Shown here: one piece after another, positions 2,919 through 42,537 of the stretch
Position numbering within the stretch: the stretch's first letter is position 1
Layout: the number at the start of each line of letters is the position of its first letter
From: a bacterium
Lineage (GTDB): Bacteria > Patescibacteriota > Minisyncoccia > Minisyncoccales > UBA10102
Assembly: GCA_027624865.1 (NCBI GenBank)
Contig: JAQBTT010000003.1
Location: 1 to 42,853, forward strand
Reading direction: 5' to 3'
Length of the DNA: 42,853 nt
Notes under the pieces: model-generated
Told to the model about the DNA's origin: nothing
What the model saw: the letters and a program-made list of their open reading frames with translations, nothing else
Databases searched by the model: none
Made by a program: the position numbers and the translations under genes

Positions 2919-3053
2919 CCTAAACTTGGTTTGGCCAAGTTATCCCCACCTAAGCTAAGCTTAGGAGCTTGGGTGAGATTGCTTCCCCTGGGGAAGCAAT
3001 AGGTTAAGCAATAGTTATAGAGGCAAAAGCGGGGTCTAACCCCGCTTTTGCCT
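2919..3053. repeat. Intergenic cluster of different REP-like palindromes (degenerate A, A, C, D)
   Basis: cctaagctaagcttagg 2949-2965; attgcttcccc-t-ggggaagcaat 2978-3000; aggcaaaagcggggt-cta-accccgcttttgcct 3021-3053. Confidence 0.85.
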
Positions 3054-3102
3054 TTGATTCAGATGTAGTTTTTTGGCGTAATTTTATGGTATAATTACAA
3101 TT

Positions 3103-3615
3103 ATGATCAGGCAATTTATTAAAGGCAGAGTGTATGTTTTTGTAGATGCTGCGAATATTTTGTATTCATAGCAAACTTTGCGTTGGCGAGTGGATTATGC
3201 AAAACTTAAGGAATATTTTGAGCAAGAATGCGATCTCCAGGCTATTTATTTCTATACTGGTCGTGTTGGGGAGAATAATAAGCAAAACTCTTTTCTTAAA
3301 AAGCTTGAACGTTTTGGATATATCGTAAAAGCAAAAGAGGTAAAAAGGATTAAAGTTTCAAAAAGCACCTACGAATGGAAGGGTAATCTCGATGTAGAGC
3401 TTACCATTGATGTGCTTGGAAGTATTAATAATTTTGATACCCTTATTTTAATGTCAGGAGATAGCGATTTCGCTCCGCTTTTAGATGCGGTAAAAGCTCA
3501 ACACAAAAGAGTGCTGGTTATGTCTACGAAGGGTCATGTTTCAAAAGAGCTTTTAGATCGCGCGAAATACATCAACGTAAAGAAGTTAAAGGATTTTATT
3601 TCGTATTATAAATAA
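3103..3615 (+). pseudogene. NYN-domain (LabA/DUF88, PIN-like) protein with one in-frame TAG
   Basis: ATG 3103 reads MIRQFIKGRVYVFVDAANILYS*QTLRWRVDY (TAG 3169-3171) in the same frame as ORF 3178-3615; KGNLDVEL and LMSGDSDF motifs; TGgTATAAT at 3087-3095. Confidence 0.8.
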
Positions 3616-3723
3616 AAAAAATCCCCCCGCTGAAGCGGGAAGAGGTTTGACATTTTCTATTATAGCAAATACATATACCCTGTCAATGGCAAATTTTGGG
3701 GATACTATTGCCGGCGGCTATCC

Positions 3724-3792
3724 CTGCCTAAGCTAAGCTTAGTTATCCCCACCTAAGCTAAGCTTAGTTATCCACAGCTAAGCTAAGCTTAG
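3724..3792 (+). repeat. Three tandem family-A palindromes (25-nt period) with DnaA-box-like spacers
   Basis: ctaagctaagcttag at 3728, 3753 and 3778; spacers ttatccccac and ttatccacag. Confidence 0.9.
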
Positions 3793-3872
3793 TTTTTGAC
3801 AGAGGCGGTTGGATTTGAGCATAGTGAGTTATAGAAAGGTCGTTAGTGTATACAAGGGTAACATTTAAAGTT

Positions 3873-4097
3873 ATGGCAGAAATAGTTAACTCACCAATCG
3901 TTTCCAAGATTGTAAAAGGAGGAAGTAGAACATACTTTTTGGATTTGCGGGAAAGTAAAAAGGGTAGCAAGTATGTGCAACTCACCGAGTCTCGCCGCGG
4001 GCAAGACGGTGAGAATATCCGTAGCAGTCTCTTTCTTTTTCCAGATCGGATTCCTGAATTTCAGAATGCCTTGAGTGAAATTGTAGAACAGATGTAA
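3873..4097 (+). CDS. PUR-alpha-like (DUF3276-type) single-stranded nucleic-acid-binding protein
   Basis: SKIVKGGSRTYFLDLRESKKGSKYVQLTESR matches the PUR repeat pattern; ATG at 3873. Confidence 0.75.
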   Translation: MAEIVNSPIVSKIVKGGSRTYFLDLRESKKGSKYVQLTESRRGQDGENIRSSLFLFPDRIPEFQNALSEIVEQM

Positions 4098-4104
4098 GAA
4101 TTGT

Positions 4105-4134
4105 GGGCGTTGCCTATCTTGTTGAGCAGCGCCC
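4105..4134 (+). terminator. Possible terminator hairpin
   Basis: gggcgttgc...gcagcgccc just after the stop; the U-tract is weak. Confidence 0.35.
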
Positions 4135-4143
4135 CTTCTGTAT

Positions 4144-4195
4144 CTCTGCCTAAGCTTAGCTTAGTTATTCACAGCTAAGCTAAGCTTAGGCAGAG
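4144..4195. repeat. REPIN-like inverted doublet of family A, upstream of RAYT-1
   Basis: Perfect 21-bp inverted repeat (4144-4164 / 4175-4195) around the spacer ttattcacag. Confidence 0.9.
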
Positions 4196-4227
4196 CAAAC
4201 AAGAGACATTTGCAGTATACTGTTTTT

Positions 4228-39825: not shown

Positions 39826-40239
39826 GTGAAAATGCCAAGCAAAAGACGCAGTAGTCGCTCAAGAGGAAAGGACGCGAGTAAACCGACAGCGCGGTTGCCA
39901 AAAAAGCCTTTGCTTCCTCCTCAAGATAGGGCGAGCAAGAAGAGTAAAGACTCTTCTCAAAAAGAAGTCGCTCCTTTACAAGTTTCTGCTCTAAAAGAGC
40001 CTATAGCAAAGCAGGATTCCAGGAAGTGGGTTGATTATTTTGACCCCAAAGACATCTTGACGCCGGGTCTTTGCTGTCAAGAACATCCAAAAGAAGCTAT
40101 CAAGGAGATTAGTGAGAGCGTCGCTTTTTGCAGAGTTTGTTTTCAAGTGTTGAGCTTGCAAGGAGAACCTTCTTTACAGCAAAGTAGGAAAAGAGGATTC
40201 CTGCAGAAGTTAAGGAGAACCTTCTTTACAGCAAAGTAG
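39826..40239 (+). CDS. Hypothetical basic protein with CxxH/CxxC (B-box-like) motif
   Basis: SD ggagg; CCQEHP...FCRVC; C-terminus altered by a 52-bp duplication. Confidence 0.5.
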   Translation: MKMPSKRRSSRSRGKDASKPTARLPKKPLLPPQDRASKKSKDSSQKEVAPLQVSALKEPIAKQDSRKWVDYFDPKDILTPGLCCQEHPKEAIKEISESVAFCRVCFQVLSLQGEPSLQQSRKRGFLQKLRRTFFTAK

Positions 40240-40263
40240 GAAAAGAGGATTCCTGCAGAAGTT
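40160..40263 (+). repeat. Perfect 52-bp tandem duplication
   Basis: 40160-40211 is identical to 40212-40263. Confidence 0.95.
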
Positions 40264-40325
40264 GCTGAGAATATAAATACGAAGCACACTTCTTTAAACC
40301 CCGTCGGTGCATGAAACAGGCGGGG

Positions 40326-40353
40326 TTGACTTTTTTCTAAAGTCTCGTAAAAT
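40326..40353 (+). promoter_or_regulatory. Probable sigma70 promoter of groESL
   Basis: TTGACT 40326-40331, 16-nt spacer, TAAAAT 40348-40353. Confidence 0.5.
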
Positions 40354-40410
40354 AAGGACTGCAAAGAGTGCTCAAAGGTACATAATATTATTAATCTATT
40401 ATCAAAAAGT

Positions 40411-40701
40411 ATGATCATCAAACCATTATCAGACCGCGTATTACTTGAGCCTTTAAAAGAAGAACAAAAGACTAAAACTGGCATCCTATTGCCAGAGACG
40501 GTGGAGCAGGAAAAGTCAGAGCAAGGAACTGTTATTGCAGTGGGCCCCGGTAAGAAGGGAAAGGATGGCAAGATAACTCCTTTGGACGTTAAGGTAGGAG
40601 ATATAGTATTGTATGCAAAGTATGGCCCAAATGAGATGAAGGTGGAAGGAAAAGACTACCTCATTGCAGAGGAGAAAGATATCTTAGCGATATTAGAATA
40701 A
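40411..40701 (+). CDS. groES: Co-chaperonin GroES
   Basis: IKPLSDRVL, TGILLP, GTVIAVGPG, EKDILAI. Confidence 0.98.
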   Translation: MIIKPLSDRVLLEPLKEEQKTKTGILLPETVEQEKSEQGTVIAVGPGKKGKDGKITPLDVKVGDIVLYAKYGPNEMKVEGKDYLIAEEKDILAILE

Positions 40702-40705
40702 CAAG

Positions 40706-40822
40706 TGATATTTATGGATATTTGCCCCTCGCATAGCTCGGGGCGATACTCGTGGATACTCGTTGTGCCCCTGAATATCGCGAGCGTAGCGAGCAAGTAT
40801 CAATAAATATCTATTAGTATCA
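40706..40822. repeat. Inverted 'gata/tatc'-unit arms with nested GC-rich hairpin motifs
   Basis: tgatatttatggatattt ... aaatatctattagtatca; internal gcccctcgcatagctcggggc and gcgagcgtagcgagc. Confidence 0.6.
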
Positions 40823-40830
40823 GACAAATT

Positions 40831-42462
40831 ATGGCAAAACAAATTTTCTATTCAGAGGAGGCACGAAGAAAGCTAAAAGCCGGCGTAGATAAAGTAGCAA
40901 ACGCAGTGAAAGTAACCCTTGGACCCAAGGGACGCAATGTTATTTTAGAAGAAGGATTTGGCATACCTACCATTACAAATGATGGCGTTACCATTGCAAA
41001 GAAAATTGAGTTTGAGGATAAGGTGGAGAATATGGGAGCGGAAGTCATAAAAGAAGTATCTTCCAGAGCCAATGATGCCGCAGGAGATGGAACAACAACA
41101 GCAACAGTTTTAACGCAAGCTATTATTCAAGAGGGATTAAAGAACGTAACTGCGGGAGCTAACCCTTTGGCTTTAAAAAGAGGATTGGAAAAAGCTTCAA
41201 AAAAAGTGATTACTGCTCTGCGTGAACTTTCACAGCCAGTTTCAAGAAAAGAAGAGATGGCGCAGGTAGCTGCTATTTCAGCAGAGGACACAGAGATAGG
41301 AACACTTATTGCAGAGGTCATGGAAGAAGTTGGAAAAGATGGAGTAGTTACCGTAGAGGAGTCCCAGACTTTTGGTATTCAAAAAGAAATTGTAAAAGGA
41401 TTGCAATTTGATCAAGGGTATATTTCCCCTTACATGGTTTCCAACACAGAGCGCATGGAAGCGATTTTTGAGGACCCATATATTTTAATAACTGACAAAA
41501 AGATTTCTTCTTTGCAAGAGATACTTCCTACATTGGAAGCTATCGCCAAAACCGGTAAGAAAGATTTGGTTATCATTGCAGATGACGTAGATGGCGATGC
41601 CTTAGCAACCTTGGTGGTAAACAAGCTTCGGGGAATTTTTAACACACTTGCGGTGAAAGCCCCTGGATTTGGAGATAGAAAGAAGGAAGTATTAGAGGAT
41701 ATTGCAACCATAACAGGAGCGCAAGTTATTACAGAGGAGGTGGGACTTAAGTTAGATAGCATTACACTTGAACAACTGGGATCTTGCCGGCGCATCGTTT
41801 CAACAAAGGAGAATACTACAGTTATTGAGGGAAAAGGAGCAAAAGAAAAGATTGATGCAAGGATTGCTCAAATTCGCTTGGTTCTCAAGGATGCAAGTTC
41901 CGATTTTGATAAAGAAAAACTTCAGGAGCGTTTGGCAAAACTTGCAGGAGGAGTAGCTGTTATTAAAGTTGGAGCCGCAACCGAAGTTGAACAAAAAGCA
42001 AAGCAACATAAAACAGAAGATGCGCTTTCTGCAACAAAGGCTGCAGTTGAAGAGGGCATTGTTCCTGGAGGGGGAGTTGCTCTCCTACGGGCTGCTCAGT
42101 CTTTGGAGGGGCTGGAATTTCAAGACAAGGAAGAGATGGTTGCCTTGAGTATTATAAGGCGGGCACTTGAGGAACCCATTCGTCAAATAGCACAAAATGC
42201 AGGGAAAGATGGTTCTGTGGTTGCCGCGGAAGTTAAAAAAGGAGAAGGTTCTTTTGGGTATAATGCAGCAACAGATGTGTACGAGGATCTTTTAAAAGCT
42301 GGGGTAGTGGATCCTACTAAAGTTGTGCGAGTTGCATTGGAGAGCGCAATTTCAGCTGCCTCTACACTTCTTACCACAGAAGTTGTAGTGGTGGATATTC
42401 CAGAGAAGGATGATAAGAGAGGAATGTCTTCTGGTATGCAAGGAGGCATGGGGGAATTCTAA
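40831..42462 (+). CDS. groEL: Chaperonin GroEL
   Basis: [31 protein letters not shown] tail. Confidence 0.99.
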
Positions 42463-42475
42463 CTCACGAGAATGT

Positions 42476-42537
42476 TGCCTAAGCTAAGCTTAGTTATCCC
42501 CACCTAAGCTAAGCTTAGGCAGACTAGCTTAAGCTAG
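42476..42537 (+). repeat. Two tandem family-A palindromes with a ttatccccac spacer, plus ctagcttaagctag
   Basis: Cores at 42479-42493 and 42504-42518. Confidence 0.9.

Follow-up and report, generated by a model that had tools for sequence, protein, structure and literature searches.

A probable REP/RAYT system with long-lived in-frame sites in the conserved genes of a reduced, Patescibacteria-like genome

The 42,853-nucleotide stretch of DNA analysed here (the window) is contig C11 of a genome of 558,841 bp in 38 contigs, rated 98.9% complete and hereafter called G000. It carries many copies of a short palindrome, family A, around an intact gene for a Y1/HUH transposase-like protein, RAYT-1. 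We consider it probable (roughly 0.7) that the two make up a system of repetitive extragenic palindromes (REPs) and a REP-associated tyrosine transposase (RAYT), in which the sites inside genes are long-lived and the upkeep of the repeats depends on the RAYT.

The family-A core, CTAAGCTWAGCTTAG, has 14 exact copies in the window against 0.00 expected from 100 shuffles. A preceding reading of the window from its letters alone, without database searches (the sequence-only reading), had counted 15; 14 of these are exact, and the one at 8775 has one mismatch and is a near-copy only. The same reading placed the highest density of copies around the transposase gene, and 7 of the 15 do lie within 2950-4973, surrounding the open reading frame (ORF) 4228-4947. 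It also described three in-frame sites within genes, one in dprA and two in uvrC, with an identical peptide in the two proteins; the sites are real, and DprA and UvrC both contain VPKLSLGAPKLSLGT. The features of the window are as follows, doublets being named by the spacing of their two REPs.

2923..2964, intergenic: hetero-pair in which a hairpin unlike family A, AACTTGGTTTGGCCAAG (2923-2939), is joined through the tag TTATCCCCA (2940-2948) to a family-A REP (2950-2964)
3728..3792: three family-A REPs in an array at 25-bp spacing, separated by TTATCCCCAC and TTATCCACAG
4144..4195: inverted 25-bp REP doublet (REPs 4150-4189), immediately upstream of RAYT-1
4228..4947, + strand: RAYT-1, intact Y1/HUH transposase-like gene of 239 amino acids (aa)
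4959..4973: family-A REP monomer, 11 nucleotides (nt) past the RAYT-1 stop and before the start of a ComF-like gene at 4981
6191..7081, + strand: dprA (Pfam DNA_processg_A, 242 bits, and DprA_WH)
6860..6903: 21-bp REP doublet, a 44-bp perfect palindrome, in frame in DprA as VPKLSLGAPKLSLGT
8775..8789: degenerate REP monomer with one mismatch, TTAAGCTTAGCTTAG, just past the stop of ORF 7230-8765
27904-28623, + strand: RAYT-2, second full-length Y1 gene, with a flanking palindrome, GGGCTAAAACNGTTTTAGCCC, unlike family A
34642..35964, - strand: uvrC (Pfam GIY-YIG, UVR and UvrC_RNaseH_dom)
34834..34858: REP monomer (CTGCC..GGCAG) at UvrC site 2, read as LPKLSLGS, hairpin of -13 kcal/mol
35561..35604: 21-bp REP doublet at UvrC site 1, read as VPKLSLGAPKLSLGT, following a conserved LTHQP
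42475..42522: 25-bp REP doublet with a TTATCCCCA loop, downstream of ORF 40831-42462

Genome-wide (0.56 Mb), there are 66 exact cores on 20 of the 38 contigs; with up to two mismatches, family A has 72 non-overlapping matches at 43 loci, and its consensus is YCTGCCTAAGCTWAGCTTAGGCAGR. At least one exact core is present at 38 loci, and 13 of these (about a third) lie inside conserved genes, genic status being judged by ORF context, Pfam and alignment to orthologues. The 38 loci divide by architecture.

Inverted doublets at 21-bp spacing: 15 loci, spacer GAGCTC with one variant, perfect palindromes of 38-48 bp; genic 11 of 15
Pairs and arrays at 25-bp spacing: 12 loci, spacer TTATCCACAG, TTATCCCCAC or complement; genic 0 of 12
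Pair at 24-bp spacing: 1 locus, open frame; genic 1 of 1
Monomers: 10 loci; genic 1 of 10

This division follows the reading frames. The segment CCTAAGCTWAGCTTAGG translates as PKLSLG from either strand, and the remaining two frames contain TAA or TAG, a property that the sequence-only reading had noticed and that follows directly from the letters. The 21-bp doublets are open in one frame per strand, reading PKLSLGAPKLSLG. The 25-bp pairs, which include direct and inverted orientations, carry a TTATCCMCA loop and are closed in all six frames; no open frame, for example, spans the array at 3728..3792, which lies between an NYN-domain gene and a DUF3276 gene. Because only the 21-bp form and the 24-bp variant offer a stop-free frame, selection allows these to persist in genes; that the genic copies all use the open frame is the residue expected of selection, and no special mechanism is required to explain it. 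Folded as single-stranded DNA (ssDNA), the 21-bp doublet has a stem of 20 bp and a loop of 4 nt (-23.3 kcal/mol, z -9.0), and the 25-bp doublet a stem of 22 bp and an 8-nt loop holding TTATTCAC (-23.3 kcal/mol, z -8.5). In this the inverted pairs, each folding into a single hairpin (about -23 kcal/mol, z -8.5 to -9), resemble REP doublets forming hairpins (REPINs).

The 13 genic loci fall in 11 genes: those for DprA, UvrC (two sites), RNase HII, IleRS, ArgRS, TsaD (two sites), Pth, a PGA_cap protein, a Mur ligase, the CCA-adding enzyme, and a conserved 438-aa protein (on contig C19) without a Pfam family. Reading frames run unbroken through all 13 sites, and every one of the genes is either recognised by Pfam or conserved. 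The inserts are presumably translated. In an AlphaFold2 model of DprA (predicted local distance difference test, pLDDT, 80.0), residues 223-241, which contain the insert, are the sole internal stretch below pLDDT 50; they are modelled between the Rossmann-like domain and the C-terminal winged helix, and on this prediction the DprA insert sits in a low-confidence, disordered inter-domain linker. The peptides vary by genome (PKLSLG, PKRDLG/PKSRLG, PKRGLG/PKPRLG, PWPDQE/PWSGQG) while the two arms remain complementary, which points to upkeep acting on the DNA hairpin and not on the protein; selection at the level of the peptide was rejected on the same grounds.

The four remaining 21-bp doublets are non-genic. 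One has no long ORF, and three (C4:6747-6784, C17:17478-17515 and C28:8550-8587) lie 3-15 nt upstream of start codons, where the TTAGGA/AGGAG of the repeat may, to judge from its letters, act as a ribosome-binding site. The genes that follow are presumably PBP-like, rsmI-like and transketolase-like, in our own reading of translations not checked against Pfam.

RAYT-1 scores 34.6 bits against Pfam Y1_Tnp (PF01797; cut-off 23). In an alignment of 22 relatives, both histidines of its HUH motif (H93-F-H95) are invariant and Y153 is present in at least 90%. An AlphaFold2 model built on that alignment has a pLDDT of 87.7; the closest fold in the PDB is 4ER8 (E 1.9e-5), a complex of the E. coli REP-associated tyrosine transposase with a REP hairpin, and ISDra2 and IS608 TnpA come next. 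Copies of family A stand on both sides of the gene (doublet 4150-4189, monomer 4959-4973). RAYT-1 is one of five Y1 genes in the genome, which are 30-50% identical and each have different flanking palindromes; the Y1 genes other than RAYT-1 are at most 53% identical to it. Two of the five are interrupted, one on C1 (a TAA inside the match) and RAYT-2 (27904-28623). These are divergent paralogues with no identical copies, and therefore not copies of an insertion sequence (IS). RAYT-2 has a single in-frame TAG at codon 37, in the conserved WRFLQGL motif, and the RAYT-1 orthologue of a congener (G004, below) has TAG for TGG four codons earlier in the same motif; the shared location could be coincidence, inactivation or regulated read-through.

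Orthologues of RAYT-1 occur in seven related genomes, one per genome. The order RAYT, ComF-like gene, one more gene, DprA is shared by G000, G001, G003, G004, G015, G017 and five metagenome contigs, and G005 and G008 also have orthologues (72-77% identical). Relatives 65-78% identical come from records titled Candidatus Wildermuthbacteria or Patescibacteria, and those 33-43% identical are spread across that radiation. RAYT-1, a Y1/HUH enzyme present once per genome, has been inherited vertically and keeps its genomic position.

For comparison between genomes, G002 is the sister of G000 (98% complete), and G001, G003 and G004 belong to the same genus; G005, G015 and G017 belong to other genera. 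G004, a complete single-contig genome, was compared with G000 in full. A species tree of five host proteins (1,777 columns, insert columns removed; 19 genomes with at least three of the five genes) gave (G001,(G003,(G004,(G000,G002)))), with supports of 100, 94, 97 and 100. In each of six genomes, the palindromes flanking RAYT-1 could be read off.

G000: core GCTWAGC
G004 and G015: core ACGAGAT
G001: core ATCSGAT
G005: core GCGAGGC
G008: REP AACTTGGCCCGRCCAAGTT

The tag TTATCCMCA is retained beside the RAYT-1 REPs of G000, G004, G015, G001 and G005. The co-occurrence of motif and RAYT-1 lineage that the first reading anticipated holds in a particular form: the core is essentially specific to the genome and identical with the REP that flanks its RAYT-1. 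Among 36 genomes of the family, the exact G000 core is found 66 times in G000, 3 in G001, 2 in G005, once in G008 and never in the other 32; the two copies in G005 form one doublet (G005:C4:60848-60885), at the same position in Pth as in G000. A generic doublet, CCTAA-N7-TTAGG-N4-CCTAA-N7-TTAGG, was found in G000 only among 201 genomes sampled across the order; with one mismatch allowed, the family yields 15 in G000, 13 in G004, 6 in G005, one each in G003 and G017, and none in the other 31. All 15 doublets of G000 have the core of its RAYT-1 flanks. G004 has no G000 core and 40 exact copies of its own, arranged as in G000 (21-bp doublets in genes, and 25-bp pairs with the tag between genes), and its genic doublets share the core of its RAYT-1 flanks. 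The match is partial in G005, where three of the six doublets have the RAYT-1 flank core and the six carry four different cores. In G008, the REP flanking RAYT-1 is also found at the sites in the 438-aa protein, RNase HII and TsaD (its first site), and the hairpin at 2923-2939 of the window is similar to this REP.

The sites themselves are shared more widely than their occupants. At 9 of the 13 genic sites of G000, G004 holds its own REP at the same alignment position. Its doublet PKRDLGAPKSRLG occupies the sites in DprA, IleRS, the 438-aa protein, Pth, the Mur ligase and the CCA enzyme; there is a variant doublet in RNase HII, and a monomer at each of the two TsaD sites. ArgRS has a related in-frame 25-bp pair, the two UvrC sites have other inserts, and the PGA_cap gene has nothing at the insert site of G000. 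None of the four non-genic 21-bp doublets of G000 is present in G004. In the reverse direction, six genic doublets of G004 were checked: four are absent from the same sites in G000, and a fifth precedes a start codon, at a place taken in G000 by a 25-bp family-A pair.

In IleRS, G000 (with a 12-nt partial duplication), G003 (core GCAAGAC), G004 and G005 (core GCTTCGC) agree in the position and length of the doublet; G002 has a same-length decayed sequence there and G008 a monomer-like one, and the insert is absent from 10 more distant genera. The site in the 438-aa protein presents seven different versions in seven genomes at one position: doublets of 17 + 4-5 + 17 nt in G000, G004, G005, G008 and G001 (of another family in the last), another palindrome in G003, and a same-length decayed relic in G002. 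At the DprA, CCA, Pth and Mur sites, some genera have varied palindromes and most of the rest have short loops that are unrelated; the doublet of G001 DprA is the REP that flanks one of its RAYT paralogues. UvrC site 1 holds a decayed relic in G002 and an own doublet in G005, and 9 of 18 aligned genomes have only a loop of at most 10 residues there. UvrC site 2 is empty in G002; G004, G003 and G005 hold a different REP-like in-frame segment. Shared positions with different occupants, together with the relics in G002, indicate that the sites are old and that the sequence of the occupants is young or homogenised. The same-length relics at IleRS, the 438-aa protein and UvrC site 1 further imply that the common ancestor of G000 and G002 was already occupied at these places.

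The state of the repeats varies with that of RAYT-1 in the three genomes for which this was compared.

G000: RAYT-1 intact; 15 doublets, on average 95.9% alike, 12 of 15 with perfect arms
G004: RAYT-1 with TAG for TGG at codon 32; 19 doublets, on average 83.6% alike, 5 of 19 with perfect arms
G002: RAYT-1 not found (best match a 35% identical paralogue); 0 doublets

Seven sites in G002 are without a palindrome (CCA, Pth, Mur, both in TsaD, RNase HII and UvrC site 2) and three hold the same-length decayed relics described above; dprA was not found in this genome. The series parallels the published decay of REPIN populations after loss or inactivation of their RAYT (10.1101/2021.07.10.451892).

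Taken together, these observations suggest that a REP/RAYT system operates in a reduced, Patescibacteria-like genome, with family A as its REP population. By analogy with the E. coli enzyme, RAYT-1 would bind and nick its cognate REP hairpin on ssDNA. Essential proteins would tolerate the 21-bp form in their surface loops and linkers, and it would be translated there as PKLSLGAPKLSLG; the 25-bp form would survive only intergenically. Within each genome, the occupants would be kept alike and matched to the REP recognised by its RAYT-1, and would decay where RAYT-1 is not found or bears a stop. On balance, it seems to us that this homogeneity arises through RAYT-dependent replacement of resident cassettes, of some kind, rather than through point mutation. 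Units may be excised and put back at the same permissive or target sites, or nicking may induce copying from another copy. Hetero-pairs such as 2923-2964, and REPs of paralogous RAYTs at the same site, favour replacement of whole units over mutation in place; no clear recombination signal emerged from identities computed in windows around the inserts in Mur and UvrC. A tentative extension, which could well be wrong, is that host proteins contain fixed 'cassette slots', the intragenic doublets, and that a change of a lineage's RAYT and REP, or a takeover by another RAYT/REP pair, leads to overwriting of the resident cassette by whichever hairpin is then active. Cassette exchange across a family of Patescibacteria would then drive concerted evolution of loops in essential proteins such as aminoacyl-tRNA synthetases, TsaD, Pth, the CCA enzyme, UvrC and DprA, and the TTATCCMCA loop of the intergenic form would be a shared recognition or target element, possibly a DnaA-binding site.

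The tag deserves comment here. TTATCC[AC]CA joins REP hairpins that belong to several families, and other genera, too, keep it next to their REPs. In the window it is found at 2940-2948, 3743-3751, 3768-3776 and 42494-42502; genome-wide, base composition predicts about 25 occurrences of TTATC[CT][AC]CA and 62 are found, 16 of them directly adjoining family A. TTATCC[AC]CA equals the textbook DnaA-box consensus. The dnaA gene of G000 is on C4. No cluster of tags was found within 1.5 kb of dnaA in the complete G004 genome, where extraction of the dnaA ORF was partial, and the tag is thus not established as the DnaA box of this lineage. REP-plus-tag segments also occur in frame in G004 ArgRS (..CTTAAAGAGACTAAGTTATTCACACCTTAAAGAAACTAAG.., G004:C1 about 552872-554626) and at UvrC site 2 of G003, G004, G005 and G012 (AACTTAATCTCGTCAAATTATCCCC); where the core has no stops, therefore, the tag is not strictly barred from genes.

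Several points weigh against a replacement-driven REP/RAYT system. RAYT-1 falls below the NCBIfam equivalog for REP-associated tyrosine transposases (NF047646; 25.9 bits against a cut-off of 80), phmmer finds no match to it among PDB sequences at E of at most 0.01, and the family-A consensus contains neither GTAG nor CGTC, the tetranucleotides of the Di Nocera superfamilies. The IleRS doublet of G000 is nearer to that of G005 (34/38) than to those of its congeners (24-27/38), a pattern that simple replacement would not predict. Some sites hold REPs of unrelated families, which fits hot or permissive sites as well as it fits replacement. Doublet-free relatives differ in both the length and the sequence of the loop, so that there is no clean empty site and no definable target motif. 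The relics in G002 match every family at 17-24 of 38 positions and their family of origin is not assignable, and the association between RAYT status and REP state covers three genomes only. A metagenome scan with DprA gave a best relative of 72% identity, at which filled/empty polymorphism is not observable. In the one sequencing run with this region (Logan contigs, about 6x), unitigs end within the repeats, leaving the DprA doublet unbridged, and no joints were seen; unitig data of such low depth are uninformative on either excision or assembly. No RNA dataset was listed as containing the region.

Other explanations must be weighed against the same evidence. The sequence-only reading had proposed that an active or recent RAYT-REP system writes short peptides into host proteins. 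The first part of this stands, in that there is a RAYT with its own flanking REPs and that the repeat lies in the translated frame of DprA, UvrC and nine more genes; the recency does not. A recent de novo invasion, in which family-A doublets were lately inserted into uninterrupted genes, would suit the near-identity and mostly perfect arms of the G000 doublets, a core nearly private to G000 (66 copies against 0-3 in each of 35 relatives), the lack of doublets at the CCA, Pth, Mur and TsaD sites of G002 and the congener G003, and the absence from G004 of the non-genic and PGA_cap doublets. It is improbable, however, in view of the nine sites occupied in G004 at the same positions by another core: by rough estimate, some 13 and 20 independent sites among thousands of codons would share well under one. 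The IleRS doublet is, moreover, common to five genomes of the clade, the IleRS and 438-aa sites are occupied in five to seven, and IleRS, the 438-aa protein and UvrC site 1 retain relics in G002. Conservation of the inserts across distant orthologues, which the first reading had itself counted as contrary evidence, is found for position within the clade, but not for sequence and not in more distant genera. It is also conceivable, if unlikely, that insertion has recurred independently at a few hot or permissive sites, the shared positions reflecting targeting and survivorship. Either all REP families here would home in on one structural or sequence feature, or no other loops would accept 14 further residues. 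The paralogue-RAYT REP in the DprA loop of G001 and the different palindrome of G003 there would fit this, as would unrelated palindromes at the Mur (REPs of unrelated families in G001 and G017), CCA (G005, G013, G006) and Pth (G007, G012) sites, the predicted disorder of the DprA linker, and a published case (PMC3733652) of different REPs at about the same recB site in two Xanthomonas species. Yet the exact position and length (17 + 4 + 17 nt) of the IleRS doublet in G000, G003, G004 and G005, with the G002 relic, argue for descent; no conserved flanking target motif is visible at the compared sites; and at least four genic doublets of G004 lie at sites unoccupied in G000, so that permissive sites are not saturated.

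A model without mobility, in which ancient cassettes evolve in place, their arms kept complementary by hairpin-templated repair or by selection, and RAYT-1 is a bystander, could account for complementary arms even in single-copy versions, such as the IleRS doublet of G003 (GCAAGAC, the only such doublet of its genome) and the six doublets of G005 with their four cores. We find it very unlikely, as it leaves unexplained the 15 dispersed loci of G000 and most of those of G004 that share the core of the RAYT-1 flanks, the heterologous pairs such as 2923-2964, and the decay where RAYT-1 is not found. A function selected by the host as the main cause of the repeats' presence, whether an mRNA hairpin tuning translation or decay, a protein linker, or titration of DnaA by TTATCCMCA loops, might be suggested by a tag that is over-represented, conserved beside REPs across genera and placed in the hairpin loop, and by the three doublets just upstream of start codons; but the peptide is unconserved between genomes, the tag is lacking in the genic doublets, no tags cluster near dnaA of G004, and the sister genome G002 does without all of them, which makes this highly improbable as well. 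That the repeats were wrongly joined into genes during assembly has a practically negligible chance: unitigs of the one run do break inside the repeats, none crossing the DprA doublet, but the frame stays open at all 13 sites in the 11 single-copy conserved genes, and the same architecture and positions recur in independently assembled genomes, one of them a single contig.

Palindromes other than family A are also present in this genome. A simple hairpin census returned family A and three rarer short palindromes only. Counted as perfect hairpins (stem at least 10, loop at most 12), there are 187 in G000 against 4-8 in each of the five triplet-block shuffles that served as background; stop-to-stop ORFs of 150 aa or more contain 66 of the 187, and just 19 of these 66 are family A. 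Intragenic palindromes of multiple families (for example, CTTCGCACCCCSGGGGTGCGAAG and ACCCAGCACCACTTTT..AAAAGTGGTGCTGGGT) are thus a general trait of G000. Within the window, 38476-38587 in ORF 36567-39575 (1002 aa) holds three in-frame perfect hairpins of other families: TTGCTTCCCCWGGGGAAGCAA, a longer form of TTGCTTCCCCWGGGGAAGCAA, and AAAGTAGGGTCAGACCCTACTTT, whose core is that of the DprA doublet and of the RAYT-paralogue flanks in G001. In uvrC (- strand), 35434-35493 contains a private 10-residue insert, YTQPQRSGAG, absent from the five close relatives inspected; its DNA forms an inverted repeat, ACCCAGC..GCTGGGT, related to another repeat family of the genome.

The nearest known counterparts are the REP/RAYT (REPtron) and REPIN systems of Proteobacteria, reportedly described by Nunvar in 2010 and by Bertels and Rainey in 2011. 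As in these, a single-copy Y1/HUH enzyme has its own flanking palindromes, inverted pairs fold into one long hairpin, the RAYT is vertically inherited at one position, and, in the three genomes compared, the REPs look homogeneous with an intact RAYT and decayed without it; the fold of RAYT-1 is, likewise, nearest to 4ER8. The differences lie in the tag (a GTAG/CGTC tag there, a TTATCCMCA linker here), in the divergence of RAYT-1 from the NCBIfam equivalog, and in the host, here a Patescibacteria-like lineage. REPINs are also larger, about 100 bp against 38-48 bp, and almost exclusively extragenic, against 13 of 38 loci inside genes here (10.1101/2021.07.10.451892). Literature searches joining Patescibacteria, the candidate phyla radiation or Wildermuthbacteria with RAYT/REP found no such publication among the best 15 of 128, 51 and 240 matches.

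The picture drawn when the window was first read, of normally extragenic REPs and of in-frame palindromes described for Rickettsia, is out of date. REP monomers and dimers inside genes and in frame have been documented in several species, with enrichment in genes for DNA repair and RNA-related functions, excinuclease ABC and tRNA synthetases among them, and with one shared-site case, recB (Di Nocera 2013, PMC3733652). In-frame REPs as such are therefore not new. The present case differs in that the genic copies are due to a specific stop-free spacing variant, in their high share for a genome of about 550 genes, and in systematic site sharing with turnover of the occupants (9 of 13 sites in a congener, as many as seven genomes at one site) that is linked to the REP of a syntenic RAYT. 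The Rickettsia palindromic elements (RPEs), of which RPE-4 and RPE-6 of R. conorii have been equated with REPs, are alike in being in-frame palindromes within tolerated regions of functional genes in a reduced genome (PMC3733652). Here, however, the repeat has its cognate RAYT next to it and varies together with it. At about 100-150 bp RPE-1 is longer, and it is not known to have a dedicated adjacent transposase. The TnpA enzymes of the IS200/IS605 family (IS608, ISDra2) share the HUH/Y1 fold and act on ssDNA hairpins. Their excision is seamless and their insertion target-specific, which would fit re-use of the same sites. RAYT-1 differs from them in that it is not multi-copy and has neither IS ends nor tnpB, and in that the Y1 paralogues each have their own palindromes. 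What appears to be new, then, is the coding-compatible architecture, the proportion of genic copies in a minimal genome, the TTATCCMCA linker and the host lineage, along with the systematic sharing of sites whose occupants turn over with a syntenic RAYT.

REP/RAYT systems are regarded as extragenic and mostly proteobacterial. The genome described here would place one in an ultra-small member of the candidate phyla radiation, in which about 2% of the genes, many of them essential, appear to carry the repeat in the translated frame. The related genomes provide a natural series for testing how REPs are copied, replaced and lost, a matter unsettled for REPINs, and the system is a compact candidate for biochemistry, with a 239-residue enzyme, a hairpin of 15-25 nt and a conserved 9-nt tag. 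More broadly, it may offer selfish hairpins a route by which short loops of core proteins are rewritten repeatedly.

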